The notes: generated by a model not told the origin, from the sequence alone. Positions 1 to 59,143 are shown, numbered from the stretch's first letter. The stretch is 64,000 bases of DNA from Deltaproteobacteria bacterium (GCA_030646755.1 JAUSKU010000092.1:14270-78269), one strand, 5' to 3'. Translations and numbers: made by a program.

Positions 1-651
1 AACAGCATCAAGAACTGGCAGATACTAAAGGAGCACAATAAGCTGGTCGGTTCAAAAATGAACAATATCGTTAAAGCCTTGGGGAATTGCATCTTGCCTA
101 CCGCAGAGCTTGAGAAAGCAGCTATATGGCACGACTCAGGGAAGGCCCATGTGAAGTTTCAGGAATTTTTGTGCGGGGATGATGAGGCAAAAATGAAAGA
201 AGCAATCTGGGCAAAGTCTCCTTTCAGAAACCGAAAACACAAAAGGCCTTATTTCCGGCATGAGCTTGCCAGCGGGCTTGCGGCGCTCCAGAACGGGCAA
301 AGCGACCTTGTGGCATATCTTGCCGCGGCCCATCACGGGAAGGTGCGGCTGTCAATCCGCTCTCTTCCGGGAGAGAAAATACCGGACGACTCAAAGACCC
401 GTTTTGCGCGGGGCATTTGGGAAGGCGATGAACTGCCGCCAACCAAGCTTGCCGACGGTGTGATGATGGACAGGACTGTTCTGGATCTGGAGCCGATGGA
501 AATGGGAACTGGCAAAAACGGCCCCAGTTGGCTTGCCAGAACATTAAAACTGCGGGACGACTATGGACCATTTCGCCTTGCATATTTGGAGGCGCTGTTA
601 AAGGCCGCAGATGAAAGGGGGAGCAGAGAACAGGAGGCAGGCCATGAGTAA
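1..651 (+). CDS. cas3: Cas3 C-terminal HD nuclease domain (5'-partial; gene continues upstream of the window)
   Basis: The reading frame is open from base 1. HD-domain motifs are present: WHDSGKAHVKFQ (HDxGK), RHELASG and AAAHHGK. The stop at 649-651 overlaps the start of the next gene. Its position immediately upstream of csx17-csb1-csb2 matches type I-G loci, where Cas3 carries a C-terminal HD domain. Confidence 0.7.
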   Translation, partial: NSIKNWQILKEHNKLVGSKMNNIVKALGNCILPTAELEKAAIWHDSGKAHVKFQEFLCGDDEAKMKEAIWAKSPFRNRKHKRPYFRHELASGLAALQNGQSDLVAYLAAAHHGKVRLSIRSLPGEKIPDDSKTRFARGIWEGDELPPTKLADGVMMDRTVLDLEPMEMGTGKNGPSWLARTLKLRDDYGPFRLAYLEALLKAADERGSREQEAGHE

Positions 652-2812
652 TACCATCCGACTTGAAGGCTGCCGCCCTGAACCGTTGGCCCATTATCTG
701 AAGGCGCTTGCTGTCTTGCGCCTGGTCGCAGAACAGACAGACAGTGAAGCTGCCGGCTTCTGGGATGGGGACACATTCTGCCTCAACACAAGATTAACTG
801 AACAGGAGTTGGCTGAGTTCTTTCTGAAAGACTACACTCCAACGCCGATCATCGCACCGTGGAACGGTGGTAGCGGTTTTTATTATCAGGAAGAAAAGCT
901 CAAGGATAAAGACCCTATAACTGGCAAGCGGAAAAAGACCGGGCAGCGGAATCAGCCCACAGAGGCAACTAAAACCGTTGAACGATTGTTAAACAGCAAA
1001 TCTGAGCGGCTGTCCAATTATCGGAAAGTTCTTTCTGCAGCAAAACAAACCATTCAGTACTTGGGACTTGACGAAGCACCAAAAGACGACGGTAAATACG
1101 ATTTGCTTACCTCACTTCGGGGACGTTTACCCGAAGAAGCTTTAGCCTGGTTTGATGCAGCTGTATTGTTGGGAACAGAAAAAACCGGTTTTCCCCCGCT
1201 TCTTGGGACGGGTGGAAACGATGGCAATTTAGATTTCAGCAATAACTTCATGCAGCGGATAGTAGACATACTTGATGTAGATAGCGGTACTCCGCAATCT
1301 GAAGCAGTCAAATGGCTTAAAACTGCTCTATTTTCTGCAACAATGCCGGGTTTACAGCGCGACTCGGCAGTTGGACAATTCTACCCAGGTGCCGCTGGCG
1401 GCGCTAACGGTACGGCAGGGTTTGATGCCAAATCAATGCTCAACCCCTGGGACTTTTTACTTATGATAGAGGGTTCATTGGCTTTCGTGGCCGCCTCAAC
1501 AAAAAAACTGGGCAACAGATATGACGGCACCCTCAGTTATCCATTTACGTTCAGAGCTTCAGGTGTTAATTATGCAAGCGCCGATAAAAATGATGAAGAC
1601 CCGCGGGGAGAAATCTGGATGCCACTTTGGGAAAAACCTGCCGGAATTTCTGAAATAATGACGCTGTTTGCTGAAGGTCGAGCCACTGTTAACAGAAGAC
1701 AGGCTGTCAATGGAGTTGATTTTGCCCGTGCCGTCGCTACGCTCGGAACAGATCGTGGAATAACAGCATTCAACCGTTTTGGTTTTCAAAAAAGAAATGG
1801 CAAGGCCTACTTCGCTAATCCATTGGGTCGCTGGAAGGTGAACCCTGTCCCTGAAACCAACCTTATCTCTGAAATCGATGGATGGCTTGACAAATTCCGC
1901 CGCGCTGCATCGGGAGACAACGCTCCTGCAAGTATAGGACGCGCTTTACGAGATGTCGAATCCGCGATAATGGAACTTTGCCGCAGTGGCGCGAAAAGAA
2001 ATGCGCAGGCGCTTTGTATCGCGTTTGGAAAGGCAGAGCAGGCCCTGGCAAGGAGCAGCAGTTTTAGCAAGAAAGCGTTTGTCAAACCTATTCCGCTTCT
2101 TTCTGCAAACTGGCTGACCGCCTGTGATGACAACTCTTTGGAGTTCCGCCTTGCCAGTGCATTGGCTTCTGCGGCTATTCGAGAGAATATGGAACCTGTC
2201 CGAGTGAACAGATGGGTCGGTTGGGATGAAAACGACAAGCCGACCCACGTTGTCTGGGGAGAAGGGCGTTTGACTGAAAAGCTCATCTCAGTATTGGAGC
2301 GCCGCATAATTGACAGCAACAGCGATGATAAATATCAGGCATTCACGGCCTACTCAAGCCGTCCGGCTGAGCTTTCCGATATTGCGGCATTCATTAGAGG
2401 AGAGGTTGACGAAACCAGGCTGGAAGACCTATTGTGGGGGCTTAATCTTATAGACTGGCGCAGTGTTGAATATAAAAATAATCCGAGGGAAGAGGGTCGA
2501 CCTATTCCTATTGCATACGCTATGTTGAAGCTTTGTTTCCTCCCCGGTCTGCTTGACGATATAAAGATTCCCGTTCAGCCTGCCATTATTGCAAGGGCCA
2601 AAGCAGGCGATGCCCCGGCGGCCTCAAGGCTTTCCAGTAACCGCCTGACCGCCAGCGGTTTTGTGCCGAGAGTAAAAGGGATTTCAGAAGATCAGCAGAT
2701 TCTGCGGAGATGCGCTGCAGCCCTTTTGTTCCCGATAAAAAGAGAGGGTATACAGTTATTAGCCGGTATGGTTTTGCAACCAACCCAAAAATCGCAACAA
2801 AAAGGAGAATGA
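644..2812 (+). CDS. csx17: Csx17 / Cas8u2 large subunit of a type I-G (I-U) effector
   Basis: The ORF is 722 aa. An AGGAGG ribosome-binding site at 632-637 sits 6 nt before the ATG at 644, and the ORF-track start at 611 is an upstream extension. It lies between cas3 and the cas7 homologue, and its size fits the Csx17 family. Confidence 0.7.
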   Translation: MSNTIRLEGCRPEPLAHYLKALAVLRLVAEQTDSEAAGFWDGDTFCLNTRLTEQELAEFFLKDYTPTPIIAPWNGGSGFYYQEEKLKDKDPITGKRKKTGQRNQPTEATKTVERLLNSKSERLSNYRKVLSAAKQTIQYLGLDEAPKDDGKYDLLTSLRGRLPEEALAWFDAAVLLGTEKTGFPPLLGTGGNDGNLDFSNNFMQRIVDILDVDSGTPQSEAVKWLKTALFSATMPGLQRDSAVGQFYPGAAGGANGTAGFDAKSMLNPWDFLLMIEGSLAFVAASTKKLGNRYDGTLSYPFTFRASGVNYASADKNDEDPRGEIWMPLWEKPAGISEIMTLFAEGRATVNRRQAVNGVDFARAVATLGTDRGITAFNRFGFQKRNGKAYFANPLGRWKVNPVPETNLISEIDGWLDKFRRAASGDNAPASIGRALRDVESAIMELCRSGAKRNAQALCIAFGKAEQALARSSSFSKKAFVKPIPLLSANWLTACDDNSLEFRLASALASAAIRENMEPVRVNRWVGWDENDKPTHVVWGEGRLTEKLISVLERRIIDSNSDDKYQAFTAYSSRPAELSDIAAFIRGEVDETRLEDLLWGLNLIDWRSVEYKNNPREEGRPIPIAYAMLKLCFLPGLLDDIKIPVQPAIIARAKAGDAPAASRLSSNRLTASGFVPRVKGISEDQQILRRCAAALLFPIKREGIQLLAGMVLQPTQKSQQKGE

Positions 2813-2814
2813 AC

Positions 2815-3783
2815 ATGAGTATTAATCTTGATGCACTGAAAACAGTACCACGCCTGCTTATCGAGGCCGAACTCGCCCCCGTCCAGGGGAGCCGCTTTCA
2901 ACCAACGGGGTTCCCCGACCTTGGCGCCGCAACCTACACCCTGCATGATGGCACGGAGATGTGTCTCGTGGAATCGGCACAGAGCATGGCAAACCGCTTG
3001 GAGGCCGTTTGCTGGGATGGCGCGAATAGTGAGCTGATAGACCCGCTGAAGGGCATCCCATATATTAAGGTTGTGGAGGATGGCAAAACAGTTACAACCT
3101 CCATTCTTGATGCCCATCGGATGAATTCTCCATATATACTTGAAGGCGAAGACAAGAGTTTTTTGGAGACAATCAAAAAAGAAATTAATACAGCCAGTGA
3201 CCGTCCCGTGGATATGAGGGCACTAGCAAAATTTGTCTACAAGTACGACACAAATGCCCTGTTACACGGGATATTCATAGCTAAAAGTGATCTGGCAGGC
3301 GGGAGGTTTAAGATAGCGAGGTCACTCTCTTCTTTTATAGAAGCTCGCGGGATAAATGTAGTGGCATCCGGCGGAGTGAAAAATGACCCTGTTAACCCTT
3401 CCGGCGACACAGCCAAAGGTTACGGCAATGTTCCTTTTCACCGGGATGAGTATACTGCCCAGCAGATTACGGCATACTTCAATCTTGATTTAGCTCAGAT
3501 CCGTGGGTTCGGTTTGGGCGGAAATGCTGAAACTCTGCTGATTACACTGGCATTGTTTAAGATACAAAAGTTTCTACAGGAAGGCCTTCGTCTACGGACT
3601 GCTTGCGATTTGAAAGCAGTGTCAATTCAGGTTAAACAGCCAGCAAACTTCGTATTATCACCTCTCGAAGACCTAGGCATGGAGCTGCCAAAGTTAATTT
3701 CATCCTCGGCTGGTTTCGCAGAACCTAAAGTAACAACAGTAAAGTTTTCTCCGTCTAAGCCGAAAAAGGAGGTCATTGCATGA
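2815..3783 (+). CDS. csb1: Csb1 (Cas7 backbone subunit, GSU0053 family)
   Basis: The ORF is 322 aa. AAGGAG at 2802-2807 precedes the ATG at 2815, and the ORF-track start at 2710 lies inside the csx17 coding region. It carries the glycine-rich RAMP motif RFQPTGFPDLG and sits where cas7 belongs in a I-G operon. Confidence 0.75.
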   Translation: MSINLDALKTVPRLLIEAELAPVQGSRFQPTGFPDLGAATYTLHDGTEMCLVESAQSMANRLEAVCWDGANSELIDPLKGIPYIKVVEDGKTVTTSILDAHRMNSPYILEGEDKSFLETIKKEINTASDRPVDMRALAKFVYKYDTNALLHGIFIAKSDLAGGRFKIARSLSSFIEARGINVVASGGVKNDPVNPSGDTAKGYGNVPFHRDEYTAQQITAYFNLDLAQIRGFGLGGNAETLLITLALFKIQKFLQEGLRLRTACDLKAVSIQVKQPANFVLSPLEDLGMELPKLISSSAGFAEPKVTTVKFSPSKPKKEVIA

Positions 3784-5366
3784 TAGCCATCTCCTTTAAG
3801 TTTACGGGGGGCGGGTATCACGCCACTCCGTGGGGGAGGCATGTGAATGAAGGGGCAGTTGAGTGGCCGCCTTCGCCGTGGCGTATCCTGCGGGCTCTGC
3901 TTGCGACAGGGTATAATAAGCTTGGATGGGAGACTGGAAAGCCGGCATCCGAGGCGACAACCCTCATGGAGAAACTTGCGTCAGCGCCGCCTTCATTTAA
4001 CCTGCCGCCTGCGTCACTTGGACATGCGCGCTATTTCATGCCTGCACCTGAGACAAAGACGAAGATTTTTGACGCCTTTGTTGCCATCTCTCCTGAAGAA
4101 TCATTGGTTGCCATATGGGGCGATGTTGAACTAAGCCCGGATGAGACACAGTTGCTGGAGCGGCTTCTATCATCCCTTTCTTATCTTGGTCGTGCAGAAT
4201 CATGGGTAACTGCCAGCCTGCTCGACAAATGGGACGGCAATGCCAACTGCGTACCTTTAAATGGTCACGATATAAAGGAAGGCCAGCAGGTCCGTTTGCT
4301 TGCTGCGCAACCTTCCGAAGACTATAACTCATGGCGCACCGGATTTATTGAGGCTCAGGGGATAAAAGAGGGTGGTAAGAAGAAGGGTAAAGGTGTTTTT
4401 ACCGTGCCGGAAAGCATCTGGCATGTTCTTCATGCCGATACCGCCGAGCTTCAAAAAGAAGGCTGGTCAGTCCCCCCCGGCAGCCGCTGGGTTGAATATC
4501 TTTGTCCAGACGAGCTGTTTTCCGTCGCATACAGCCCTGTGAGAAAATCCGTGTTCCGTCCCACAGTTGCCCGTTATGCCCTCTCCGGTTCCGTCCTCCC
4601 GTTGTTTACTGATGCTCTCTTTCTTGGTGAACGGATGAGGCAGGCTCTGATGCATCATTCTAAGCGGATTAGCGGGGAAGAACATGCCCATCCTGTCTTT
4701 TCGGGCAAGACTGTGGATGGTAAAGCCGGCAAAGACTCCCATAAACACTCTTTTTATCTACCGGCAGATGACGACGGAGATGGACGGATAGACCACATCA
4801 CGGTATACGCATCCGATGGTTTCGATGATGCAGCTCAAAAGGCGCTTGGCGCTGTCAGGAAACTTTGGGGCAGCAGCGGTCACGATATCTACCTGGCCCT
4901 TGTAGGATTAGGAGAGGGGCCGACATATGGAGGATTCAATGTAAATGATGGGCAGACTCAGCAGCTTGCCGAATCAACGGTATGGGAATCTCGTACTCCT
5001 TTCGTCCTTACCCGACATCTCAAGGTAAAGGGCAGTGAACGTCACGACCCGGATGTTTACAGACGTGCTTACAGACGTGAACTGGAGAAGACACTAACTT
5101 TTGAATTGCAGCGAATTCGTCCGGCCCTGCCGGAAATTCTTAGCATTGAACATATAAACAGCACCGTAAACTCAATCGGAAAGGCAGTTCCGTGGTATAG
5201 CTTCAGACGGCAGCGTACAAAAGGCGGCGGAACCAGGGCGTCATTTCAGGGGCATGGATTTCGGGTAATATTCGCTTCGCCCGTACAAGGCCCTCTCATG
5301 GCGGGTTACGGCTGCCACTTTGGTTTGGGGCTCTTTACCCCAACTACCTTGCAAATTAGAGTTTGA
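3780..5366 (+). CDS. csb2: Csb2 (Cas5-Cas6 fusion, GSU0054 family)
   Basis: The ORF is 528 aa. The N-terminus HATPWG...EWPPSPWRILRAL is characteristic of the GSU0054 Cas5 family. Its start overlaps the csb1 stop as ATGA, and AGGAGG lies at 3765-3770. Confidence 0.75.
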   Translation: MIAISFKFTGGGYHATPWGRHVNEGAVEWPPSPWRILRALLATGYNKLGWETGKPASEATTLMEKLASAPPSFNLPPASLGHARYFMPAPETKTKIFDAFVAISPEESLVAIWGDVELSPDETQLLERLLSSLSYLGRAESWVTASLLDKWDGNANCVPLNGHDIKEGQQVRLLAAQPSEDYNSWRTGFIEAQGIKEGGKKKGKGVFTVPESIWHVLHADTAELQKEGWSVPPGSRWVEYLCPDELFSVAYSPVRKSVFRPTVARYALSGSVLPLFTDALFLGERMRQALMHHSKRISGEEHAHPVFSGKTVDGKAGKDSHKHSFYLPADDDGDGRIDHITVYASDGFDDAAQKALGAVRKLWGSSGHDIYLALVGLGEGPTYGGFNVNDGQTQQLAESTVWESRTPFVLTRHLKVKGSERHDPDVYRRAYRRELEKTLTFELQRIRPALPEILSIEHINSTVNSIGKAVPWYSFRRQRTKGGGTRASFQGHGFRVIFASPVQGPLMAGYGCHFGLGLFTPTTLQIRV

Positions 5367-5396
5367 CGAATTTACCACTGTTCTTTGACAAATGAA

Positions 5397-6165
5397 TATT
5401 GCCTCGGCAAAAGCCACGGCCCCATTGAAGCGACTACATCGAGCGCCTTAGTAATAGGGCGTTCCAGTGATTTCCGTGGCTGAAAAGCCACGGCCCCATT
5501 GAAGCAACGCCATATAAGAGAGATACTTTATTGGAACTTCCAGAATTTCCGTGGCTGAAAAGCCACGGCCCCATTGAAGCATATATTGCGGCATCGCTAT
5601 AGCCGCCCTGCCGGCGGCATTTCCGTGGCTGAAAAGCCACGGCCCCATTGAAGCGAGGCTGGCTTGGTATGCTATTCCGGCCCCTGCCCTCATTTCCGTG
5701 GCTGAAAAGCCACGGCCCCATTGAAGCGTTTCCATGCCGCCGGGTCAATAGTAACAACGTGCTTATATTTCCGTGGCTGAAAAGCCACGGCCCCATTGAA
5801 GCGTTTCCCACATCAAGCAGGCCTCGGAGGTTATAGATATTTCCGTGGCTGAAAAGCCACGGCCCCATTGAAGCGATGAGATTATGGACCTGGAAGAACT
5901 GGATATTTTAATTTCCGTGGCTGAAAAGCCACGGCCCCATTGAAGCGACACTATTCCAAGACTATTTGACAAGGAAGATGTCATTTCCGTGGCTGAAAAG
6001 CCACGGCCCCATTGAAGCAGCACCTGGTGAATAACCACTATGGCCGCGCTGATGTAATTTCCGTGGCTGAAAAGCCACGGCCCCATTGAAGCGTCAAGAC
6101 CAAGGAGCTGTTTGACACTTGCCTGACTCATTTCCGTGGCTGAAAAGCCACGGCCCCATTGACTA
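5397..6165 (+). CRISPR. CRISPR array of 11 repeats (36 bp, consensus ATTTCCGTGGCTGAAAAGCCACGGCCCCATTGAAGC) and 10 spacers of 36-39 bp
   Basis: Repeats start at 5397 (5'-degenerate, tattgcctcggcaaaagccacggccccattgaagc), 5470, 5545, 5619, 5692, 5767, 5839, 5911, 5983, 6057 and 6130 (3'-degenerate, ...CATTGACTA). The repeat has an internal hairpin GTGGCT-GAAA-AGCCAC and ends in ATTGAAGC, which resembles the type I 3' handle ATTGAAAC. That supports transcription on the + strand, in the same direction as the cas genes. Confidence 0.95.
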
Positions 6166-12715: not shown

Positions 12716-13201
12716 TCATCGAGAACAAGACGTAAGGTTTAAGAACCTTTCGTACTTTTCCCCGTTTGCAGTAACCTCTATCTCCCTCTCAGTCTCACCT
12801 ATTCTGTTAATGGTGATCCTCAGGCATTCAGCAGGTATCGCCTCTTCGACATTTGATGCCCATTCCAGGGCGGAAACGCCATCGCCATATAGATATTCCC
12901 TGTATCCAATCTCTTCCAATTCATCAAGGTCTGAGAGCCTATAAAGATCGAAGTGATAAAGGGGAATTCTTCCTTCGTGGACGTTCAGGATTGTAAAGGT
13001 GGGGCTCCTGACGTAAGATTCCTTAGATACTTCAAGCCCCTGTGCAAGCCCCTGAATCAGACAGGTCTTCCCAGCCCCCAGATCACCGTCAAGGGCTATG
13101 ACGTCTCCAGGTTGGCAAAGTCTGCCTATTTTGATCCCCAGCTTCCGGGTCTCTTCAGGACAATGACTGACCACTGACCACCGACCACTGACCACTGTCA
13201 T
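12716..13201 (-). CDS. tsaE: tRNA threonylcarbamoyladenosine biosynthesis protein TsaE
   Basis: GDVIALDGDLGAGKTCLIQGLAQGL carries the Walker A motif in TsaE/YjeE context. The annotated N-terminus runs through the GACCACT heptamer array, so the true start may be the internal GTG. Confidence 0.8.
   Translation of the reverse strand: MTVVSGRWSVVSHCPEETRKLGIKIGRLCQPGDVIALDGDLGAGKTCLIQGLAQGLEVSKESYVRSPTFTILNVHEGRIPLYHFDLYRLSDLDELEEIGYREYLYGDGVSALEWASNVEEAIPAECLRITINRIGETEREIEVTANGEKYERFLNLTSCSR
13168..13196. repeat. (GACCACT)n heptamer tandem array, site 1
   Basis: The sequence is gaccactgaccaccgaccactgaccactg. It sits at the 5' end of tsaE and the 3' end of the CBS gene. Confidence 0.9.
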
Positions 13202-13653: not shown

Positions 13654-13685
13654 CTGACTCCTTTTAGTGACCGGTGGCCAGTGGC

Positions 13686-13774
13686 CGGTGGTCAGTTGAA
13701 CTATTGATTTAATTGCAATTGCCGACCACTGATCACTGACCACTGACCACTGACTTTATTGCATAAGGTATCTT
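13686..13774. repeat. inverted pair of heptamer arrays: (AGTGRCC)n ... 27 bp ... (GACCACT)n, site 2
   Basis: The left array is agtgaccggtggccagtggccggtggtcagt and the right is gaccactgatcactgaccactgaccactgac. It lies between the CBS gene and nnr. Confidence 0.9.
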
Positions 13775-18087: not shown

Positions 18088-18126
18088 AGTGGCCGGTTTA
18101 AGGGACCACTGATCACTGACCACTGG
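18088..18126. repeat. heptamer array, site 3 (partial inverted copy then direct copies)
   Basis: The sequence is agtggccggtttaagggaccactgatcactgaccactgg. It lies between ppdK and glyS. Confidence 0.85.
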
Positions 18127-24690: not shown

Positions 24691-25602
24691 TTATTCTATG
24701 ACAACAGCCTTCCACTCATCACTGTTTTTTATATCTTCCCATCCAGCCTTGCCATGATACCAGCCGTTGCAGAAACCTATCTTTTCCAAGGGTGATAGTC
24801 TGGTTTTTGCCTCTTCAAGAGTTATCTTACCGTCAAGCTTATCCTTGAAGATCTTTATAACATCCCCTGTAACTCCGTACTGGGGCGATATCCTGGCCTT
24901 TGCAATCCCGATATCCTTGAGTTCATCCAGATAATCAATAAGGTTCATGGTCAGGGCACTCATAATCTGGGTCCCGTTTACTATAAACAAGGGCCTCTTT
25001 TCAAGGGTCTCTATAAGCATCCCTTCAGGAAACTTGCGACAGTCTAACTTGCAGTTGCTCTTGAGGAGGCCGAAGGTCCTTGATGTATAACACCTCCAGG
25101 AAAAGGCCAGGGGAAGCTTACCGTATACAAACGCCTCGGTCTCTATATCAGTATTCTTTGCTATCGCTGCCATGGCATCTTTAGAAAGTTCCACCGGGAA
25201 TACTACTCGATTTACCCCGATACCTTTAAGGAACTCCACACTATCGTAATTATAGCTGGTTATATGAGGGCCTGCCACAAGACCTTTCTTCCCCTTTGCC
25301 AGTTGCAGGGCAGATGCGTCGTTTGCCTCTATTGCAAAGGGAAGCCGGCAAGCCTCTCTTACAACATCAAGCTCCGTATCGTCAGAGACCAAGGCGAGAG
25401 TAGACACAACCACATTCTTCCCAGCCTTCTGAAGCTCCTCCCCTACCCTCCTGATATCATCAAGAGTAAGCCCCCGCTTCCTATGGCAGACCACCTCCCC
25501 CAGATATACGTCGGATACAGGCCACCCGGCGGCCTCCTTATAAAATTCCAAAAGGTTATCCCTGCTCCAATCAAATAGGACAGGGCCTAAAGTAAATTCC
25601 AT
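24691..25602 (-). CDS. peptidase U32 family protein (YhbV/UbiV-like)
   Basis: The ORF is 303 aa with a U32 TIM-barrel-like N-terminus and conserved Cys residues. Confidence 0.65.
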   Translation of the reverse strand: MEFTLGPVLFDWSRDNLLEFYKEAAGWPVSDVYLGEVVCHRKRGLTLDDIRRVGEELQKAGKNVVVSTLALVSDDTELDVVREACRLPFAIEANDASALQLAKGKKGLVAGPHITSYNYDSVEFLKGIGVNRVVFPVELSKDAMAAIAKNTDIETEAFVYGKLPLAFSWRCYTSRTFGLLKSNCKLDCRKFPEGMLIETLEKRPLFIVNGTQIMSALTMNLIDYLDELKDIGIAKARISPQYGVTGDVIKIFKDKLDGKITLEEAKTRLSPLEKIGFCNGWYHGKAGWEDIKNSDEWKAVVIE

Positions 25603-25696
25603 TTACTTCTCCTGTAATGGTAAGTAATTCATGAAGATAATAACACAGGCAGGCAATATCAGCCAAATAGAAAGTTATAGAAGCAAAAACGGGGCT

Positions 25697-26209
25697 TTAA
25701 ACAACCGGCATCCAGAGAGTCAATCCTGGTACGCTTTTGAAATCATTATCGCCTGTTGCAATATGGCGAATGCCCTTCCTTTCCATCACTGCATAGTGGG
25801 CCGCATCTGCAGTAATCAAGCCATATTCCATTGTTTTTTGAAGCGCAGTCATAATATCGCTGTCCTTAAGCTCAAGAACCGTCATACCGGACTCTTTCAG
25901 CAAGGCAATATAGCCCATATACTTCAGGACAGAATCAAGTACCTGCTCCCTTTTCTTTTCGTTATGCAAAAGGGTCTTTACCTTCGGAACGGTAACTTTG
26001 TCGAGGAAATTTGATGCCGACTGCATCAAGAGCTTGAAAGAGACCTCTTCCAGTACAAGGGATGATGTGTATATCTTGAGATTATGCAGCTCTGCCATGT
26101 TTAAGAATTCTACCGAGACATGATTAATGTCAAAGGCATGATGGAGAAAGATATTAGAATCAATGAAAATGGCCTCTTTGCCGTTAAAATACCTAAGATT
26201 TTTCTGCAT
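25697..26209 (-). CDS. vapC: PIN domain toxin (VapC-like)
   Basis: The ORF is 170 aa. The acidic N-terminal motif IFIDSNIFL and its overlap with the upstream AbrB-type antitoxin support the call. Confidence 0.65.
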   Translation of the reverse strand: MQKNLRYFNGKEAIFIDSNIFLHHAFDINHVSVEFLNMAELHNLKIYTSSLVLEEVSFKLLMQSASNFLDKVTVPKVKTLLHNEKKREQVLDSVLKYMGYIALLKESGMTVLELKDSDIMTALQKTMEYGLITADAAHYAVMERKGIRHIATGDNDFKSVPGLTLWMPVV

Positions 26210-26441
26210 AGAGATCCTCCAGAGCCGCTAACGAAAGCTTCCCCCTCACAACCCCCTTATATTTATCCGCATGAGACTCTTTGATGGGAAGGATAAGTAT
26301 TCCCTCCTTCGTCATCTTTACTTCAACCTTGTCACCCTGGGAGATATGCGCCTTATCCCTTAACTCCTTCGGAATAACAATCTGCCCCTTAGCCAAAACC
26401 CTTGCCAAAGACATAAATAACACCTCCTTAAGTTTAACCAA
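26193..26441 (-). CDS. vapB: AbrB/SpoVT/MazE family antitoxin (VapB-like)
   Basis: The ORF is 82 aa. GQIVIPKELRDKAHISQGDKVEV is a swapped-hairpin motif. It overlaps the PIN gene by 17 bp. Confidence 0.65.
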   Translation of the reverse strand: MVKLKEVLFMSLARVLAKGQIVIPKELRDKAHISQGDKVEVKMTKEGILILPIKESHADKYKGVVRGKLSLAALEDLYAEKS

Positions 26442-26822
26442 ATCTTTAGTTTAACTGATAAAATAGTAATACCTTGTAGAGTGGGTGTCAAGGGGAAAAA
26501 GTGGTAGAGGAGAGCAGGATACGAAGCTGACTCAGGGATATTTCAGAAAAATCAGGGACGGGTTAAGATACCGAAATGCAAACCCGTCCCCGATTAGCGC
26601 TCACCCTACAAGGCTGCTTAAGGGTATTCGATTCTAAGGGGCCGCGCCATACGGTCTCCTCTGTTAAAATAAGTGGCCTCGTTTCCTTATAGCGGAAAAT
26701 ACCTTTCATTGCAAGACCCGACCCCAAATGCACCCGCAGCCGAAAACAAACCGCGTTCACCTCCAGACTTGGCGCAGAGAAATACCAGTTCGATTCACTT
26801 TCACTGGCATCTTCACTTGGAA

Positions 26823-29558
26823 TCACTGCTTCGCGCCAAACGAACCTATTAGGGTCATCCCGGGACCGGGAGTGCCACTCTGGACGTGGCTGATCGTGAA
26901 TGTGCCCGCAATTTCATCAGCGTTCGCTCCGTAGAAATAACCATTCATGACCCGGGTACCTGCTCCTGGTGAGGTTATGGTCGTGGTACCTGCTGCGGGT
27001 ATGGAAAGTGTCGTTACTGTGGGGTCGGTGAAACTATTGCCGTTGATGGTACCGTTCACCGTGATGTCACCGAACGTAAGAGGGAGCCCCTCAGATGGCG
27101 CATATAAGGCATATGTACATGAAGAAGCGGCCACAGGCCACACACATGGGGTGATAGTAGACGCACCGGGAAGAGGAGTGATATTAGTAATTAGCCCGGT
27201 AATCGTGCCCGTGCCGCCGGTATAGCTAACGGTCAGGCTTACATCGCCGCTCACGTCATCAGAGCCACCAATGGGCGAGTGCGACAAAACGCCTGTCATC
27301 TTCCCGGTGTAGGTTATCGCAATGGGGTTCGGCATGGTGGTCGTCAGCGTGCCGCCGGCATACGCACTGTAGGTCATGACCGGGACTGGTGACGGCGGCT
27401 GGTTGGGGATGTCGTTCGTTATCGCCCACACACCAAAATCCGCAGAGGCCAACGGGATCGTGTTCCACAAGCTTGTGGCAGTCATAGATAGCGCAGGAGC
27501 ACCCGAAGCCAGTAAAATCGAGCTGGGTAGTGTGGCAATGGCTCCGACGAGGGTAGTCTCGGTGGGAGTGCTCGAAAGAGTGAATATGCTGTCGGGGGCG
27601 ACGCCGAAGGGGCCGGCAGTCACATTGGCAGTACCGCTATTACCACTGATAGTGCTGGTAAAGTCGGTCGACGTTTGTAGCGCGGTGGGAATCATGGCGA
27701 TCGTAGAAACTTGCAGCGTTGGCCCACCAGTCGCTGTGAAAGGGGTCGGGTTGGTCAGATTCTCATTGATGAAGGTGCAGGTGACGTTAGCCCCGGCCTC
27801 CAGATTCACGGTGAAGGTTCGGTTGAGTTGGTCCGTGAAGGTGGTCGTCGAGCCCGGAACCGCGACAAGACATTGAATGGAGGGCACGGTCCAGCCGCTC
27901 ACCGCGTCCTCGGTCACCGTGAAGTCGACACCAGCCGCAAGATTGATGAATGTTTTCGTGTTGGAAAGCGTGGTGTTTGTCGGGTCATCGTCCAGATCGA
28001 AGGCGCTCAGACCCGTTCCCACGGTGGTGAAGTGGAAGTCCTGCGGGCCATCGGGTTGCGCGTCCTTCACGATCGTGAGCGTGCCGGTGCCCGCCGTAGT
28101 CATGACGTTGACGAAGGTGCAGGTGACGTCAGACCCGGCCTTCAGAATCACGGTGAAGGTACCGTTGAGTGGGTCGGTGAAGATTGAGGCGCCCGGCGAG
28201 CCCGGGCTCATGGCCGAGCCCGGGATAGCGGCCGCGTCAGTGCATTGAATGGAGTTCACGGTCCAGCCGCTCACCGCGTCCTCGGTTACAGTGAAGGGGA
28301 CGCCAACCGCCGGTGTGAATGTCTTCGTGTTGGGAAGCGTGGCGTTTGTCGGGTCATCGTCCAGATCGAAGGCGCTCAGGCCCGCTCCCAGGGTGGTGAA
28401 GTGGAAGTCCTGCGGACCATCGGGCTGCGCGTCTTTCACGATCGTGAGCGTGCCGGTGGCGGGTATCGTCAGCTCCAGGCAGGCAGCCGACTCCGTGATG
28501 TTGCTGGTACCCGTTATTATCGCGAGCGCCACGGAGACCACATTGCCATTCACTGCCTGGATGGAGGCGGCGGCATTGCTTTTCACCGCCACGGTGAAGT
28601 TGCCGTTGGCGTTCGTCGTGGTAGATGCAGTACCGGTGTAGTCCGTACCTGTCGAGGTCACTAGAGCCCCCGCCACAGGATTGCCGTTGATGTCCTCAAC
28701 ACAACTGGTGTAGGTGACGGTCTCCAGGATCTGATCCGCGTTCCAGAAGCTGAAGTGGGTCACGCTACCTTCGTAGTACTGATTCGGTGCTGTGCCTTTC
28801 AGCGTCGCCGTGCCTTCTTGCACCCACAGCCCCGTGCTGGTATTGAAGAAGAACAGGGGGATGAAGTTGGGAAGTGTTTGACCCGGAAGCGAGGAGACCG
28901 GGATGCGGATAGTCGATGTCTGACCGCTGGCCAGATTGAGCGGGCTGCCGTTGGCATCGGTGAACGCCACATTGATGGCGCCAAAGCTTTCGATGGACAC
29001 GCTGGAGCCGCTCTGAGTAGTGGCGAGGTAATTGCCGGGCATTGTGCCAAGGTTGTTGGCAGGATCGATGGGCGTCACCTGCGCCGTCACCTGGCCGACT
29101 GGCAAACTGTTACTCGCAGTGCGCAGCCCGCCTGCGGGTAGCGTCACCTGCGCCGTGGAGTTCGGATCGCTGATGGTTTGTGCCACAGTTGGATCGAACG
29201 TCGCCGTGTGCGCCACGGCCAGCATGGGCACGTTGATAGACACCTGCGAACTGGAGGTGGTGTAGGCCGTCGTCGTGCGGTTCTGCGGAACGAAGCCAGT
29301 CTTGGCAAAGGTCACGATTAACGAAGATGCAGGACTCGCGCCGCTAAGTGTGTAAGCACCGCTGCTGTCCGTGATCGTGCTCTTGTTGCCCGCACTCACC
29401 TGCACACCCTGCACGCCGCTATAATTCGCGGCATTGGTGACGAAGCCGGAAATCGTGCCCGACGTCACGGGGGTGTCGCCTCCGCCGCCTCCGCCGCACC
29501 CTGCTACAATAACGGCTGATAGTAATCCCATAAAGCAGAACCTTAATAGCATCTTCAT
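26823..29558 (-). CDS. large surface lipoprotein with Thr/Ser/Gly-rich repeats and duplicated beta-sandwich-like domains
   Basis: The ORF is 911 aa. It has a lipoprotein signal (MKMLLRFCFMGLLSAVIVAGCGGGGGGD). An internal domain of about 120 aa is duplicated (TGTLTIVKDAQPDGPQDFHFTT...FDLDDDPTN...TVTEDAVSGWTV). Ala, Thr, Ser and Gly are strongly enriched. Confidence 0.7.
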   Translation of the reverse strand: MKMLLRFCFMGLLSAVIVAGCGGGGGGDTPVTSGTISGFVTNAANYSGVQGVQVSAGNKSTITDSSGAYTLSGASPASSLIVTFAKTGFVPQNRTTTAYTTSSSQVSINVPMLAVAHTATFDPTVAQTISDPNSTAQVTLPAGGLRTASNSLPVGQVTAQVTPIDPANNLGTMPGNYLATTQSGSSVSIESFGAINVAFTDANGSPLNLASGQTSTIRIPVSSLPGQTLPNFIPLFFFNTSTGLWVQEGTATLKGTAPNQYYEGSVTHFSFWNADQILETVTYTSCVEDINGNPVAGALVTSTGTDYTGTASTTTNANGNFTVAVKSNAAASIQAVNGNVVSVALAIITGTSNITESAACLELTIPATGTLTIVKDAQPDGPQDFHFTTLGAGLSAFDLDDDPTNATLPNTKTFTPAVGVPFTVTEDAVSGWTVNSIQCTDAAAIPGSAMSPGSPGASIFTDPLNGTFTVILKAGSDVTCTFVNVMTTAGTGTLTIVKDAQPDGPQDFHFTTVGTGLSAFDLDDDPTNTTLSNTKTFINLAAGVDFTVTEDAVSGWTVPSIQCLVAVPGSTTTFTDQLNRTFTVNLEAGANVTCTFINENLTNPTPFTATGGPTLQVSTIAMIPTALQTSTDFTSTISGNSGTANVTAGPFGVAPDSIFTLSSTPTETTLVGAIATLPSSILLASGAPALSMTATSLWNTIPLASADFGVWAITNDIPNQPPSPVPVMTYSAYAGGTLTTTMPNPIAITYTGKMTGVLSHSPIGGSDDVSGDVSLTVSYTGGTGTITGLITNITPLPGASTITPCVWPVAASSCTYALYAPSEGLPLTFGDITVNGTINGNSFTDPTVTTLSIPAAGTTTITSPGAGTRVMNGYFYGANADEIAGTFTISHVQSGTPGPGMTLIGSFGAKQ
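27765..28465. repeat. intragenic tandem duplication with a period of about 365 bp and about 2 copies, inside the lipoprotein gene
   Basis: Positions 27880-28130 are nearly identical to 28245-28465, for example ggtccagccgctcaccgcgtcctcgg and gtggtgaagtggaagtcctgcgg. A third partial copy sits at 27770-27860. Confidence 0.8.
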
Positions 29559-29703
29559 TTCTGAACCCTCCTTTTTATGGCTTCATGGCAATTTAGAAAA
29601 ACCGCTGGATACCGAAAATAAAAATGCCCTTCCCGTAAATTTACAGGGAAAGGCATTTTATACCCACCCGGGTATAAATAAAGATCATTAACGACGGTGC
29701 TAT

Positions 29704-29764
29704 GAGTTGAGTTGAGTTGAGTTGAGTTGAGTTGAGTTGAGTTGAGTTGAGTTGAGTTGAGTTG
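29704..29764. repeat. (GAGTT)12 pentanucleotide microsatellite
   Basis: The tract is a perfect tandem gagtt repeat. It lies 146-206 bp upstream of the lipoprotein start codon at 29558 and 70 bp downstream of the coiled-coil gene stop. Confidence 0.95.
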
Positions 29765-29785
29765 CAGTATGTATGCCATCTTTAT

Positions 29786-29830
29786 TCCCCTCACCCTAAC
29801 CCTCTCCCACAAGGGGCGAGGGGACTTTCC
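29786..29830. repeat. GC-rich palindromic element, copy 2 (TCACCCTAACCCTCTCCC-ACAA-GGGGCGAGGGG)
   Basis: It shares the core CACCCT(A/G)ACCCTC(T)CCC...GGGGCGAGGG with copies 4 and 5. Confidence 0.75.
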
Positions 29831-29833
29831 TTT

Positions 29834-30145
29834 TTACGCATGAACCGCCTTGCCCTTTATCTGCTTCACTTCTCTCGACGTTTCCAGCAATGCATCAGCA
29901 AGGGCGTTGACAGTAGTCTTTACATCGGACACATCGTCTTCCAGGACATCCATCCGGCCTTCGAAGTTATCCATTCTGCCTTCGAAATTGTCCATTCTGC
30001 CTTCGAGCCTGTCCATCCGGCCATCAAGTCTCTGTTGACCTTCTTTAAGAATAGTGACATCTTCTTTAAGCTCAAACTGGCCCTTTTTCAAGTCACCAAT
30101 GTCAGCCTTTATGTCCAACAGGATATTTATGATCCGTTCTTCCAT
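29834..30145 (-). CDS. small coiled-coil protein with heptad EGRMDNF repeats
   Basis: The ORF is 103 aa. It contains RMDRLEGRMDNFEGRMDNFEGRMDVLE, a 7-aa tandem periodicity reflecting a 21-bp DNA repeat. Confidence 0.5.
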   Translation of the reverse strand: MEERIINILLDIKADIGDLKKGQFELKEDVTILKEGQQRLDGRMDRLEGRMDNFEGRMDNFEGRMDVLEDDVSDVKTTVNALADALLETSREVKQIKGKAVHA

Positions 30146-30230
30146 ACATACACCTGTGTTTTTATATCCTTAAACTCGAATATATGTCAAGTTTTTTTAT
30201 CACCTAAAATAGAGGTTGATCTCCCGTTTT

Positions 30231-30332
30231 CCTCCTCCCCCTTGATGGGGGAGGATTGAGGTGGGGGTGAGGAACTATCGATAAGGTGCCCCCTCCCCTT
30301 CATCCCCTCCCGCCAGGGGAGGGGAGTTATTG
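30231..30332. repeat. GC-rich palindromic element, copy 3 (two stem-loops)
   Basis: It contains cctcccccttgatgggggagg and ccctccccttcatcccctcccgccaggggagggg. Confidence 0.7.
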
Positions 30333-30398
30333 TGGGTTGATATTTTCATGTCTATTTTTAAGTATCAAACGATGTTGCAACTCCAGCATGAAGCCCTC

Positions 30399-31406
30399 TT
30401 ATTTCTCTAAATAACACCCAAGCGTCGGCGTTGATCCTTCAAATGAGGAGTTTGCCTGCCTTATCCACTCCTCCTTCATGACAAATCTGGATGGATTCTG
30501 ATAATAGTTGTCAACTGCCGTCCTCAGGGTCTTTGTCACCAGGGCCACATAAGACTTTGTCCTCTGCCTTCCCTCTACCTTCAGTGCGTCAATCCCTGCA
30601 TCTGCAAGCTTTGGTATCAGTTCCATTATATTCAGTGATTCCGGGTCTTCGAAGGCATAAAAAGGCCTTCCGTCAACATAATAACGCCCCTTGCAGCATG
30701 TGGGATATGGGGAAGACTCATCTGGGCCGAGTTCATTCAGGCGGATGCCATTCAGGGTGATCCTGAGCTTGTCCTCCTTATTGTCGAACCTCACGAATCT
30801 GGACGGCGAGCAGACTCCCCCTGTGTTACAGGATACACCTGTTACGTATGATGAGAGATAACAGCGCCCCTCGACATTTATACAGAGTCCTCCCAGGGCA
30901 AAGACCTCCAGTTCAACATCTGTCTTTGACCTCAGTATCTTCATCTCATTAACAGTCATGACCCTTGGGAGGACAACTCTCTTGACGCCGAAGTTTTCTT
31001 TATAAAAGTTTATACTTTCTATATTGGAACAGCTTGCCTGGACGCTAAGATGGAGGTTCATATCAGGATACCTGTCACGGGCGTATCTCAATACACCCAT
31101 ATTTGCAAGAATTACGGCGTCAGCCTTGAGCTTATAGGCGTCGTCCACTGCCTGAAACCATATCTTTGCATCATCAAACTGGGGGAATGTATTTATTGCG
31201 ATAAAAACCTTCTTACCTCTCGCATGAGCGTATGCCACCCCTTCTTCTATGTCCTTTAAGGAAAAATTCAGCCCTTCGAAGTTCCTGGCATTGGTGGCAT
31301 TCTGAAATCCAAGATAGGCAACATCTGCACCATTATCAATGGCTGCCTTGAGCGACGGGAGACTTCCTGCAGGGCAGCATAATTCAAGTTTTTTCATAAT
31401 CGGCAC
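30399..31406 (-). CDS. peptidase U32 family protein (YhbU/UbiU-like)
   Basis: The ORF is 335 aa. The N-terminus MKKLELCCPAGSLPSLKAAIDNGADVAYLG is typical of the U32 family. Confidence 0.75.
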   Translation of the reverse strand: MPIMKKLELCCPAGSLPSLKAAIDNGADVAYLGFQNATNARNFEGLNFSLKDIEEGVAYAHARGKKVFIAINTFPQFDDAKIWFQAVDDAYKLKADAVILANMGVLRYARDRYPDMNLHLSVQASCSNIESINFYKENFGVKRVVLPRVMTVNEMKILRSKTDVELEVFALGGLCINVEGRCYLSSYVTGVSCNTGGVCSPSRFVRFDNKEDKLRITLNGIRLNELGPDESSPYPTCCKGRYYVDGRPFYAFEDPESLNIMELIPKLADAGIDALKVEGRQRTKSYVALVTKTLRTAVDNYYQNPSRFVMKEEWIRQANSSFEGSTPTLGCYLEK

Positions 31407-33870: not shown

Positions 33871-34539
33871 TTATGGTCTTATTTCCCATACAAGCTCTCC
33901 TCTGCCTGGAGGGCCGGTCATCACAAACTTTACAGATTTAGTCTCATTTGTTATCAGCTGCCTCTGATCAAGCAAATTCAAGGGGAATTTCACAGAATAC
34001 CCAACGCTCCAATCATCGAAATACGGAAAAAACCGAGTGATGTTCGGCCCTTTCCCCTTGAGTTTTTTTATCTCCAGGGGAGATACCCTTTCACCCATTT
34101 CATTTACAAGGTAAAGGGCCCATATAGGCTCTTTTCTTTCCAAATCACTCCATTCCTGAATCGGGGTATGAATTGAAATAAAGAACTCATGATATCCCCT
34201 TGGGGCCTCTATCTCATCCTCAGCAAGTTTTTTCACCTTCTCTGTGTCAAGCATGTAAACTGTTGAATATTCTCTGACATAAGACTCCCTGAACTCTTCG
34301 GTCTTAAAGGTCGCGTTAATAAGCAATTTCGTTTCAAAATTACTATAAACTTTACCTTCCCTTGTCCATTTTTTAAGGACAGACCCGTATCCATTCTCAG
34401 TAGGCTTTGTCACCTTTTGGGTAGCGCAGGAGGTTAAAAGGAGGCAACAAATAACGTAAGACGTGAGACGTGAGACGTGAAACGTCTGATACCGAGCACT
34501 GACCACTGACCACTGACCACCGACCACTGTTTTCATCAT
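33871..34539 (-). CDS. hypothetical lipoprotein (start uncertain)
   Basis: The lipobox is LLLTSCATQ. The annotated N-terminus is translated from the heptamer-repeat arrays GACCACT and GACGTGA, so the true start is probably downstream, giving a protein of about 190-200 aa. Confidence 0.45.
   Translation of the reverse strand: MMKTVVGGQWSVVSARYQTFHVSRLTSYVICCLLLTSCATQKVTKPTENGYGSVLKKWTREGKVYSNFETKLLINATFKTEEFRESYVREYSTVYMLDTEKVKKLAEDEIEAPRGYHEFFISIHTPIQEWSDLERKEPIWALYLVNEMGERVSPLEIKKLKGKGPNITRFFPYFDDWSVGYSVKFPLNLLDQRQLITNETKSVKFVMTGPPGRGELVWEIRP
34459..34530. repeat. (GACGTGA)3 followed by (GACCACT)4, site 4
   Basis: The sequence is gacgtgagacgtgagacgtgaaacgtc...gcactgaccactgaccactgaccaccgaccactg. 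It lies between pyrE and the lipoprotein gene. Confidence 0.9.
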
Positions 34540-57589: not shown

Positions 57590-57892
57590 ATGAAAAGGAT
57601 TCCAAACGGTAGGTACACAAAGGAGTTTCGGGTAGAAGCAGTAAAATTAGTGACAGAAGGAGGGCTGTCAGTCCCTGAGGCTGGACGCAGGTTGTCATTG
57701 CCGCCTTCTACGCTAAACACGTGGGTAAGAGCTTATAAATCTGGAAAACTCGGAGAAGTCGGCAAGAACCAGAAGCCACTTTCTGAAGTAGAAATGGAAC
57801 TGTCGAAAGTCAGGCGAGAACTGGCAGAAGTAAAGATGGAGCGGGACATCTTAAAAAAAGCCGCCGCGTACTTTGCGAAAGAGTCGCTGTGA
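57590..57892 (+). CDS. IS3 family transposase OrfA (HTH)
   Basis: The ORF is 100 aa. It begins MKRIPNGRYTKEFRVEAVKLVTEGGLSVPEAGRRLS, and a leucine zipper follows. Confidence 0.85.
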   Translation: MKRIPNGRYTKEFRVEAVKLVTEGGLSVPEAGRRLSLPPSTLNTWVRAYKSGKLGEVGKNQKPLSEVEMELSKVRRELAEVKMERDILKKAAAYFAKESL

Positions 57893-58764
57893 GGTACGCG
57901 ATGATCCATGAGATGCGACTCCAGTATCAGGTTCCAGCCATGTGCCGGATATTTGAGGTATCTGCAAGCGGCTATTACTCGTGGCGCAGCCGCCCTATAA
58001 GCAAGCGTGCCCAAGAAGACCAGAGACTTGAAATAGAGATACAGGCATCCCATAAGCGCACCCGTAAAACCTGTGGTCCAAAACGAATACAGGAGGATTT
58101 AACGGAGCATGGGATAAATATAGGGACTCATCGCATCAGGCGCATCCGCAAGAAGCTTGGGATAAGGTGCATACAAAAGAAGAAGCTCAAGGCAACAACC
58201 GATTCAAATCACAACCTTCCTGTAGCGGAGAACCTGTTGGAACAGAACTTTGATGCAACGGCTCCCAACCAGGTATGGGTTACGGACATAACGTACATTC
58301 CGACAGATGAAGGGTGGCTCTACCTTGCCGGACACAAGGATATATTTACCAAAGAGGTAGTAGGTTATGCAATGGATGGACGGATGACAAAGGGCCTTGT
58401 CAGCAGGTCGTTATCCAGGGCAGTACGAGCAAAACAGCCGGATGCAGGTCTTATCCATCATTCAGATCGTGGAAGCCAATACTGCTCCTATGAATACAGA
58501 GACTTGCTAAAGCAATTCGGCATGAAGGCATCAATGAGCAGAAGAGGTAACTGCTATGACAACGCTCCTATGGAAAGTTTCTGGGGTACCTTAAAGAGTG
58601 AGGTTGTGCATCATCGTCGTTACAGAACACGGCAAGAAGCTATGCAGGAGATTACAGAATACATTGAGATATTTTACAATCGTCAGAGAAGGCAGGCAAA
58701 ACTAGGGTTTCTCTCTCCAGCAGTCTATGAACAAAAGTTTTATGAAAGGAAACTTGCAGCATGA
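57889..58764 (+). CDS. IS3 family transposase OrfB (DDE integrase core)
   Basis: The ORF is 291 aa. The DDE motifs WVTDITY...HSDRGSQY...NAPMESFW are present. The frame stays open upstream through the slippery site, so an OrfAB fusion by -1 frameshifting is predicted. Confidence 0.85.
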   Translation: MRYAMIHEMRLQYQVPAMCRIFEVSASGYYSWRSRPISKRAQEDQRLEIEIQASHKRTRKTCGPKRIQEDLTEHGINIGTHRIRRIRKKLGIRCIQKKKLKATTDSNHNLPVAENLLEQNFDATAPNQVWVTDITYIPTDEGWLYLAGHKDIFTKEVVGYAMDGRMTKGLVSRSLSRAVRAKQPDAGLIHHSDRGSQYCSYEYRDLLKQFGMKASMSRRGNCYDNAPMESFWGTLKSEVVHHRRYRTRQEAMQEITEYIEIFYNRQRRQAKLGFLSPAVYEQKFYERKLAA

Positions 58765-58782: not shown

Positions 58783-59040
58783 TTGACAGCACACCTCAAT
58801 GCCACTGTCGTCAAGTTTATGGACAGGATAAAGGATACCCGCATAAACGTCCTTAGAATAACCGAAGATATTGAAACCGCTGCAAAGACAATGTTCAGAA
58901 AGTTTGATGATAGAAAACTTAGCTTTACCGACTGCACAAGCTTTGCCGTGATAAACCATCTCGACCTCCGCGCTGTCTTTGTCTTCGACGACCATTTCAG
59001 ATACCACCCCTATTCGCATCCTGTAGAGTTCTTGGGATAA
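58783..59040 (+). pseudogene. vapC: vapC (PIN) C-terminal fragment abutting the IS3 right end
   Basis: The ORF is 85 aa, and ...LSFTDCTSFAVINHLDLRAVFVFDDHF matches a VapC C-terminus. It begins 4 bp after the IS3 right end, and the N-terminal catalytic Asp region is missing. Confidence 0.5.
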
Positions 59041-59085: not shown

Positions 59086-59143
59086 GTGAGTGAGTGAGTG
59101 AGTGAGTGAGTGAGTGAGTGAGTGAGTGAGTGAGTGAGTGAGT
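59086..59143. repeat. (GTGA) tetranucleotide microsatellite, about 14 units
   Basis: The tract is a perfect tandem repeat. It lies between the vapC fragment and the helicase-nuclease gene, 527 bp upstream of the start at 59670. Confidence 0.95.

Follow-up and report, generated by a model that had tools for sequence, protein, structure and literature searches.

A perfect pentanucleotide repeat fused to a sigma-54-type box within a conserved module upstream of an exchanged surface-lipoprotein gene in an uncultivated deltaproteobacterium

A simple-sequence repeat, (CAACT)12.4 on the minus strand at 29703-29764, shares its first bases with a sigma-54-type -24/-12 box and stands, with a short hairpin motif and an intrinsic terminator behind it, in a module that is found at the same place and with other unit numbers in related lineages. 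The window analysed here is a 64,000-nucleotide stretch of DNA from a Deltaproteobacteria bacterium, and all positions are counted from its first letter. Our analyses tentatively favour, with a likelihood that we put a little short of even, the explanation that the tract is transcribed within a short sigma-54-driven RNA or an attenuated leader and forms the mutable core of this conserved module. To our knowledge, nearly all repeat-driven contingency loci described so far are those of host-adapted pathogens, in which they alter promoter spacing or reading frame. The setting here is an uncultivated groundwater or sediment bacterium in which the repeat is kept across lineages and in which the register with the box is fixed at two loci, and what sets the locus apart is the unusual position of a contingency-type repeat, fused to a sigma-54-type box, and the unusual organism that carries it.

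Tandem Repeats Finder describes the tract at 29703-29764 as a perfect period-5 array of 12.4 copies, a count taken from a metagenome assembly, with 100% matches, no indels and a score of 124, and a regex census returns 12 perfect units at 29703-29762; the perfect (GAGTT)12 pentanucleotide reported in a first-pass annotation of this DNA is thereby confirmed. The plus strand of the tract reads (TGAGT)12.4, or (GAGTT), and the minus strand, which is the gene-sense strand, reads (CAACT)12.4, with 25 A, 25 C, 12 T and 0 G over a length of 62 bp. That annotation had placed the tract 146-206 bp upstream of the start codon of a large lipoprotein gene and just past the stop of a coiled-coil gene, and the ORF coordinates agree on both points (lipoprotein gene at 26823-29558, minus strand; coiled-coil gene at 29834-30145, minus strand, with the tract 70 nt downstream of its stop). 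In the regex census of the 64 kb, only two perfect repeats of at least 25 nt with units of 1-9 bases were present, the (CAACT)12 tract and a (GTGA)14 tract at 59086-59141. A 15-nt (CAACT)3 probe, allowed up to three mismatches, had 12 matches in the window versus 1.6 expected from shuffles; 11 of these lay in or at the edge of the tract, and the other was a 3-mismatch match at 27816-27830. The tract is not a product of chance. In RNA fold predictions for the window and for a related contig described below (L013), the tract RNA is unpaired in both the minimum-energy and the centroid folds, and no sequence complementary to either repeat was found elsewhere in the window. Comparison of the whole window with the known RNA families of Rfam gave no match at gathering thresholds, the surroundings of both repeats scoring at chance level only.

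On the minus strand, the repeat is preceded by a predicted sigma-54-type -24/-12 box, TGGCATACATACTGCA (29763-29778, minus strand), which was recognized as a consensus match with GG and GC at canonical spacing. Read from 29778 to 29763, it is TGGCAT-N5-CTGCA, with two mismatches to TGGCAC-N5-TTGCA, GG and GC being kept. The final CA of the box is at the same time the first two bases of the tract, and the -12 C (29764) opens the repeat. The second long repeat of the window, (CTCA)14.8 on the minus strand at 59086-59144 (Tandem Repeats Finder; (GTGA)14.8 on the plus strand), has the same junction: the minus strand reads GTGGCACCTGAATTGCA and then (CTCA)14.8, and a both-strand scan of the window for TGGCAC-N5-TTGCA places a perfect sigma-54 consensus, TGGCACCTGAATTGCA, at 59143-59158 (minus strand). 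Neither strand of the window has a perfect match other than this one (59158-59143). On the minus strand, the second repeat is likewise free of G (15 A, 30 C and 14 T); its length is 59 nt versus 62 nt for the first tract, and both boxes overlap their own repeat by the identical two bases, CA, giving the same register at two unrelated loci. For a perfect 11-base core, the expectation is ~0.03 occurrences in 128 kb and the probability at one given position is ~2e-7, and a match with up to two mismatches at one fixed position has a p of ~1.3e-4 (529/4^11). Across the window, box matches with up to two mismatches are not enriched (18 found versus 17 expected), so that the coincidence of box and repeat is positional and does not reflect a general enrichment.

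The TGGCAY and YTG blocks are kept across the window, three related contigs (L021, L013 and L011) and the second locus, YTG being CTG in the first four, and the 5-nt spacers between the blocks read ACATA in the window, ATCTC in L021, ATCTC in L013, ATATC in L011 and CTGAA at the second locus. Kept blocks with a varying 5-nt spacer are the pattern expected of an evolving -24/-12 box. The box of L021 is TGGCAC-N5-CTGCA; L013 and L011 carry GA at -12, a 30-nt hairpin element between CTG and tract having changed the -12 GC to GA, a change expected to impair or abolish the activity of a sigma-54 promoter. Other points that count against a sigma-54 reading are the two mismatches of the box at the first locus and the base before TGGCA there, which is a purine where a pyrimidine is usual. 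No gene for an activator (enhancer-binding protein) was found among the window ORFs scanned, and no activator site was recognized. The combination of box and repeat had no matches in the viral contigs scanned, and in the full-text literature on sigma-54 promoters combined with simple repeats, no description of such a fusion was found; the Geobacter metallireducens genome paper describes other multicopy repeats and not the box-repeat arrangement.

The remaining parts of the module lie on both sides of this junction. Between the coiled-coil stop and the box is a G/C-rich REP-like hairpin (29786-29824, minus strand; -22.5 kcal/mol), of which related copies occur in L013 and in another contig, L014. 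Beyond the tract and a spacer of 25 nt comes an 18-nt motif, TTTATACCCGGGTGGGTA (29661-29678, minus strand), which forms a small hairpin and has a matching copy in L013; among the window and all fetched loci, that copy (L013 1855-1872) is the only other one, and it occupies the same place relative to the tract. An intrinsic terminator follows at 29611-29659 (minus strand), recognized by its fold energy and made up of a stem of 16-17 pairs (29659-29621) and then UUUUUAUUUU; it folds at -22.2 kcal/mol (z = -5.4) and ends 53 nt before the lipoprotein ATG. Its counterpart in L013 is a hairpin of similar sequence (-26.6 kcal/mol, z = -6.2) followed by a U-tract, and both are predicted to be canonical intrinsic terminators for minus-strand transcripts. 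A simple terminator scan had missed 29611-29659, its loop and stem rules being unsuited to this hairpin. The 53 nt between the terminator and the ATG include AAGGAGGG. Consensus scans gave no sigma-70-like promoter between the tract and the lipoprotein ATG and no sigma-70-like hexamers flanking the tract. The earlier suggestion that changes in 5-bp steps would alter promoter geometry was therefore not supported, because a 62-bp tract without flanking hexamers is too long for a -35/-10 spacer and does not lie inside a sigma-70 spacer of 16-18 bp. The only conserved promoter-like element is the box, which stands upstream of the tract in a fixed register, so that unit changes would spare the promoter and alter the transcript.

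Comparison with related contigs indicates that the place of the repeat is kept and that its copy number differs. L013, a JGI metagenome contig with ~80% DNA identity in the U32 peptidase gene, carries in order the U32 gene, the coiled-coil gene, a REP-like hairpin, ATGGCACATCTCCTG, the 30-nt hairpin element and then a perfect (CTCAA)8.2 array, which is followed by TTTATGCCCGGATGGGTA, a strong hairpin with a U-tract, a gene for a probable 140-aa lipoprotein and MazE. L021, a Logan contig representing another genomic context, carries the coiled-coil gene, a DUF2442 gene, AATGGCACATCTCCTG and then CAACTCAACTC at the start of the array; the contig stops after 5.6 units, an end inside the tract being what would be expected of short-k assembly within a repeat. 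In L011 (~90% identical), the box and the 30-nt element are present, and the contig stops where the L013 tract begins. The samples behind L013, L011 and L021 are Ga0209342, SRR22387835 and SRR22388351. Unit numbers in these three related but distinct lineages are 12.4 in the window, 8.2 in L013 and at least 5.6 in L021, which are differences between lineages and not evidence of switching within a population. That at least three lineages carry an identical, error-free unit at one and the same junction, in differing copy numbers, supports a slippage-prone and maintained repeat. Conservation between the window and L013 spans the box, the tract, the 18-nt motif and the terminator; beyond these, the downstream genes and their 5' UTRs are unrelated, and the tract is 146 nt from the ATG in the window versus ~310 nt in L013. 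The tract thus behaves, as far as comparison of sequences can tell, like a contingency-type locus, and this part of the earlier proposal stands, with a long, perfect, slippage-prone repeat that has another copy number at the same site in L013, whereas the part that concerned promoter geometry does not. A scan of GTDB species-representative genomes with the neighbouring U32 protein returned no close relative (best 50% identity), exact-protein look-ups of the coiled-coil protein and the lipoprotein of the window gave no matching record, and the contigs found by a near-identical MazE protein represented other contexts, none of them reaching the repeat.

The gene downstream of the module in the window (26823-29558, minus strand) encodes a 911-aa lipoprotein with a signal peptide, a lipobox VAGC, a CarboxypepD_reg domain, two SpaA_4 units and a C-terminal TbpB-type barrel (TbpB_B_D, PF01298; 33.9 bits, cutoff 26), in agreement with its earlier annotation as a large surface-type lipoprotein. 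Against the NCBIfam model slam_lipo ('Slam-dependent surface lipoprotein'), the protein scored 46.5 bits, below the cutoff of 80, and no Slam gene was seen beside the lipoprotein gene. The gene body at 26762-29483 (minus strand) has a GC content of 57-64% versus ~45% around it and is 92% identical at the DNA level to the ENA contigs L005 and L007 (89-92% over L005, L006 and L007). In L005 and L007, the signal peptide, the upstream region and the neighbouring genes are all different, the contexts being unrelated and more GC-rich. The GC contrast and the 92% identity in an unrelated context mark the mature-protein part as a recent horizontal acquisition. The homology with L005-L007 starts just past the signal peptide, which suggests that exchange joined the exposed part to an export signal already in place; resident DNA comprises the signal peptide, the 5' UTR and all that lies upstream, including the repeat. 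The upstream regions of these orthologues (L005-L007) are unrelated and have no repeat, so that the repeat is part of the resident locus and not of the imported gene. The locus shows surface-lipoprotein genes exchanged as cassettes behind a conserved, putatively regulatory module. The proposed link between the tract and the surface lipoprotein is only partly upheld: a lipoprotein gene does follow in both the window and L013, where it encodes a probable lipoprotein of 140 aa that differs from the 911-aa one, but a terminator intervenes and the downstream gene is swapped. Because the terminator lies between tract and ATG and the module is conserved only as far as the terminator, this link is weaker than had been assumed. 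L007 is without one of the two SpaA_4 repeat units. A translational fusion of an upstream ATG to the lipoprotein was considered and rejected, the lipoprotein frame having stops just upstream of its ATG.

Under the explanation that we tentatively prefer, the minus strand would present, in this order, a sigma-54-type box, a G-less (CAACT)n, a short conserved hairpin and a strong intrinsic terminator. The start site would lie ~12 nt inside each tract, which at the first locus would be near 29752 and within the first two or three units, and the repeat would form the unstructured 5' part of a transcript of ~140 nt. Stopping at the terminator, with a 3' end near 29612, would give an sRNA-like product, and read-through would give the leader of whichever lipoprotein gene lies downstream. 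Gain or loss of units by slipped-strand events would make the RNA longer or shorter and alter how many CAACU units it contains, and would leave the spacing of the promoter elements unaltered; any effect on the lipoprotein would be indirect, via attenuation or read-through. From the sequence features described above, we infer that the box may work as a sigma-54 promoter, that the repeat is probably transcribed from it and that repeat length is likely to matter. Both repeats being free of G on the box strand and the first tract being predicted to be unpaired count in favour of this explanation. On the other hand, the tract could also be read as a 3' UTR from the promoter of the coiled-coil gene itself, and the second locus, read from its box, runs antisense into a PIN gene truncated by an insertion sequence. 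Neither a terminator nor a gene was found behind the second repeat.

A wider, and in our view decidedly unlikely, version of this explanation would see in the two loci a class of sigma-54-driven transcripts with hypermutable G-less 5' repeats of ~60 nt, (CAACU)n and (CUCA)n, whose repeat number would set the capacity for a factor preferring C-rich, G-poor, unstructured RNA, examples being Rho, for which the repeat would be a rut-like loading site tuning premature termination, or an RNA-binding protein for which it would be a sponge. If true, this would represent a heritable and reversible RNA-level rheostat in a free-living environmental bacterium.

Other explanations account for parts of these observations. 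The tract might be a neutral by-product, a microsatellite in the 3' UTR of the coiled-coil gene that has no regulatory role, is kept perfect by slippage and may have been seeded beside a roadblock such as a stably bound sigma-54 closed complex. The exchange of the downstream gene between genomes, its recent import in the window, the lack of an obvious target gene for the second repeat and the heptamer arrays at several gene junctions, which suggest a general tendency to tandem repeats, all fit a neutral origin. We nevertheless hold it to be unlikely, because lineages whose neighbouring genes have diverged by ~20% still carry the same unit, without errors, at this junction, because two unrelated loci agree in the register of repeat and box, because conservation extends downstream of the tract, and because long perfect repeats are otherwise missing from the 64 kb. 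The box could instead be a ribosome-binding site with an ATG (29779) that opens a small ORF transcribed from the coiled-coil promoter, in which the repeat would supply codons 6-25. With 12 units, the ORF would run through the terminator, and the translating ribosome would melt it and couple translation to the lipoprotein gene, whereas with 11 or 14 units a stop right after the tract would let the terminator form. All five boxes do start with ATG or GTG and have a G-rich, Shine-Dalgarno-like run upstream (5-9 nt before the start codon at 5/5 loci), which fits a small ORF instead of a promoter. Simulated unit numbers give ORFs of 74, 47 and 24-29 aa in the three frames; the 12-unit ORF ends exactly at an ATGA on the lipoprotein start codon, and the other frames stop right after the tract or in the terminator loop. 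L013 behaves likewise, with one frame stopping immediately and two reaching or crossing the terminator, and the 30-nt element of L013 and L011 is in frame and stop-free. Such attenuation by a small ORF is nonetheless improbable, since the peptides encoded beyond the tract show no conservation, a start codon arises almost automatically in front of TGGCA (A, G or T each gives one), and neither a terminator nor a gene lies behind the second repeat; conserved GCA and YTG blocks with a variable spacer are, moreover, predicted by a -24/-12 box and not by a small ORF.

Promoter geometry could still enter in a different form, if the lipoprotein promoter lay in the 53 nt after the terminator and the tract set its distance and helical phase (5 bp being half a turn) to an upstream regulator site. 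The Neisseria meningitidis nadA repeat, which lies upstream of -35, is a precedent for such a mechanism (PMC2791445). The tract does lie upstream of a surface lipoprotein ATG in two genomes, and a weak -10-like TAAATT is present at ~29593-29588; the consensus scan of the post-terminator segment, however, gives no promoter, the segment is not conserved between the window and L013, the tract-to-ATG distance differs between the two (146 nt and ~310 nt), no operator-like sites were recognized flanking the tract, and the box-repeat junction of the second locus is left unexplained. This arrangement would accordingly have a small chance of being correct. It is also conceivable, by analogy with the TRAP protein, that a plus-strand (GAGUU)12 RNA serves as a protein-binding array. 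Bacillus TRAP binds GAG or UAG triplets with spacers of 2-3 nt, and the plus strand reads GAG-UU twelve times; in addition, the plus-strand REP hairpin at 29786-29824 is followed by a U-rich run and is terminator-like. We would give this idea hardly any weight, as no plus-strand promoter was found in the consensus scan, the box and the canonical terminator are oriented the opposite way, the GAG triplets of the second repeat are spaced by 1 nt only, and TRAP is known from Firmicutes.

Among characterized systems, the closest functional analogue would be the heptamer repeat of hmw1A. The 5' UTR of the Haemophilus influenzae surface-adhesin genes hmw1A/hmw2A includes a heptamer repeat whose number of units tunes expression at a stage after transcription start; base pairing of the repeat with a G-rich arm gives a long hairpin, which RNase III cuts (PMC12721329). 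The present locus resembles hmw1A/hmw2A in having a multi-unit repeat between a promoter, here predicted, and the start codon of a surface protein, and differs from it in that the tract is predicted to be unpaired and has no complementary partner in the window, that a sigma-54-type box touches the tract and a terminator follows it, and that the organism is an uncultivated environmental bacterium. In N. meningitidis nadA, repressor operators flank a TAAA tract that is located upstream of -35 and exerts its effect through DNA geometry, changes in its unit number altering expression with the core promoter unaltered (PMC2791445). The tract described here is likewise an intergenic repeat of 4-5-base units upstream of a surface protein gene, but unlike that of nadA it lies downstream of the sole recognizable promoter box and upstream of a terminator. 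A pentamer, (CTCTT)n, is found in the Neisseria opa genes, which encode surface proteins, within the signal-peptide coding region. Both loci have a pentanucleotide repeat near a start codon, each unit of which shifts the frame, and an associated gene for a surface protein; in contrast to opa, the lipoprotein frame here is closed by stops before the ATG, so that no fusion is possible and only a separate small ORF could be affected. The small RNAs CrcZ, Qrr, GlmY and Pxr combine a -24/-12 promoter with a transcript of ~100-400 nt that ends at an intrinsic terminator, and in CrcZ, several short A/C-rich motif copies titrate a protein. The module shares with these RNAs the type of promoter, here predicted, and the terminator, but unlike the dispersed and imperfect motifs of CrcZ-type RNAs it has a perfect, potentially hypermutable tandem array that begins at -12, and it shows no Rfam homology. 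In Campylobacter, phase-variable homopolymer repeats in the coding sequences of the activator FlgR and the kinase FlgS (flgR/flgS) affect sigma-54-dependent expression; simple repeats are thus tied to sigma-54 in both cases, the repeat here being located at the box and not in the coding sequence of an activator or kinase. If the box-repeat junction is functional, bet-hedging by simple repeats would extend to free-living bacteria, and the first transcribed bases of an activator-dependent promoter would be a new point of action for such repeats. It would also provide a signature that can be searched for in metagenomes, namely TGGCAC-N5-TTGC followed immediately by a short-unit tandem repeat.

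The module lies in an island at 25614-30395 (minus strand), delimited by the adjacency of the flanking U32 peptidase genes in relatives. These genes are at 30399-31406 and 24691-25602, and the island between them contains the coiled-coil gene, the repeat module, the lipoprotein cassette and a MazE-PIN pair. The U32 pair is directly adjacent or overlapping in L012 and L015, has REP-like hairpins only between its members in L014 and the coiled-coil gene only in L020, and these graded arrangements indicate that 25614-30395 is an island that has grown stepwise. The 103-aa coiled-coil gene (29834-30145, minus strand) has its own sigma-70-like promoter, with TTGACA at 30191-30186. It belongs to a multicopy family (window; L008, L009, L011, L013 and L019-L021): one related assembly has two or more copies, in different contexts, and L019 has a tandem pair. 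The N- and C-termini of the family are conserved, 7-aa EGRMDxF repeats vary in number (a 21-bp tandem repeat at 29948-30029), and the promoter is nearly invariant, reading CTTGACATATATTC...GGATATAAA. The MazE-PIN pair (25697-26596) has a conserved promoter and an upstream terminator at 26550-26596 and is near-identical in several genomic contexts (L022-L024), a third kind of secreted protein gene lying upstream of it in L023. Short G/C-rich REP-like hairpins of several kinds occur in the intergenic DNA of this lineage (29786-29824, 30229-30324 and L014 3058-3138), and the hairpin GGGCGTATGCGATACGCCC of L011 and L013 is the 30-nt element inserted exactly between box and repeat.

Other features of the window were recorded in the course of the analysis. 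The second repeat lies between an IS3-truncated PIN gene and a divergent gene for a UvrD/PD-(D/E)XK helicase-nuclease; the IS3-family element (orfA/orfB, 57590-58764) is inserted in the PIN-domain gene, of which the C-terminal 85 codons remain (58783-59040). Heptamer arrays of 3-5 copies, (CAGTGGT)n and at one site (CGTCTCA)n, occur at 13166-13197, 13666-13754, 18104-18125 and 34454-34529, exactly at the junctions of co-directional genes (CBS/TsaE, YjeF/CBS, GlyS/PPDK and phosphoribosyltransferase/lipoprotein). The array at 34454-34529 lies inside the apparent 5' coding region of the lipoprotein gene at 33871-34539, where a change of one unit would shift the frame. A type I-G CRISPR-Cas locus occupies 58-6162 and comprises the C-terminal part of Cas3g, Cas8g/Csx17 and Csb2, together with an array of ~11 copies of a 36-37-nt repeat, ATTTCCGTGGCTGAAAAGCCACGGCCCCATTGAAGC, separated by spacers of ~37 nt.
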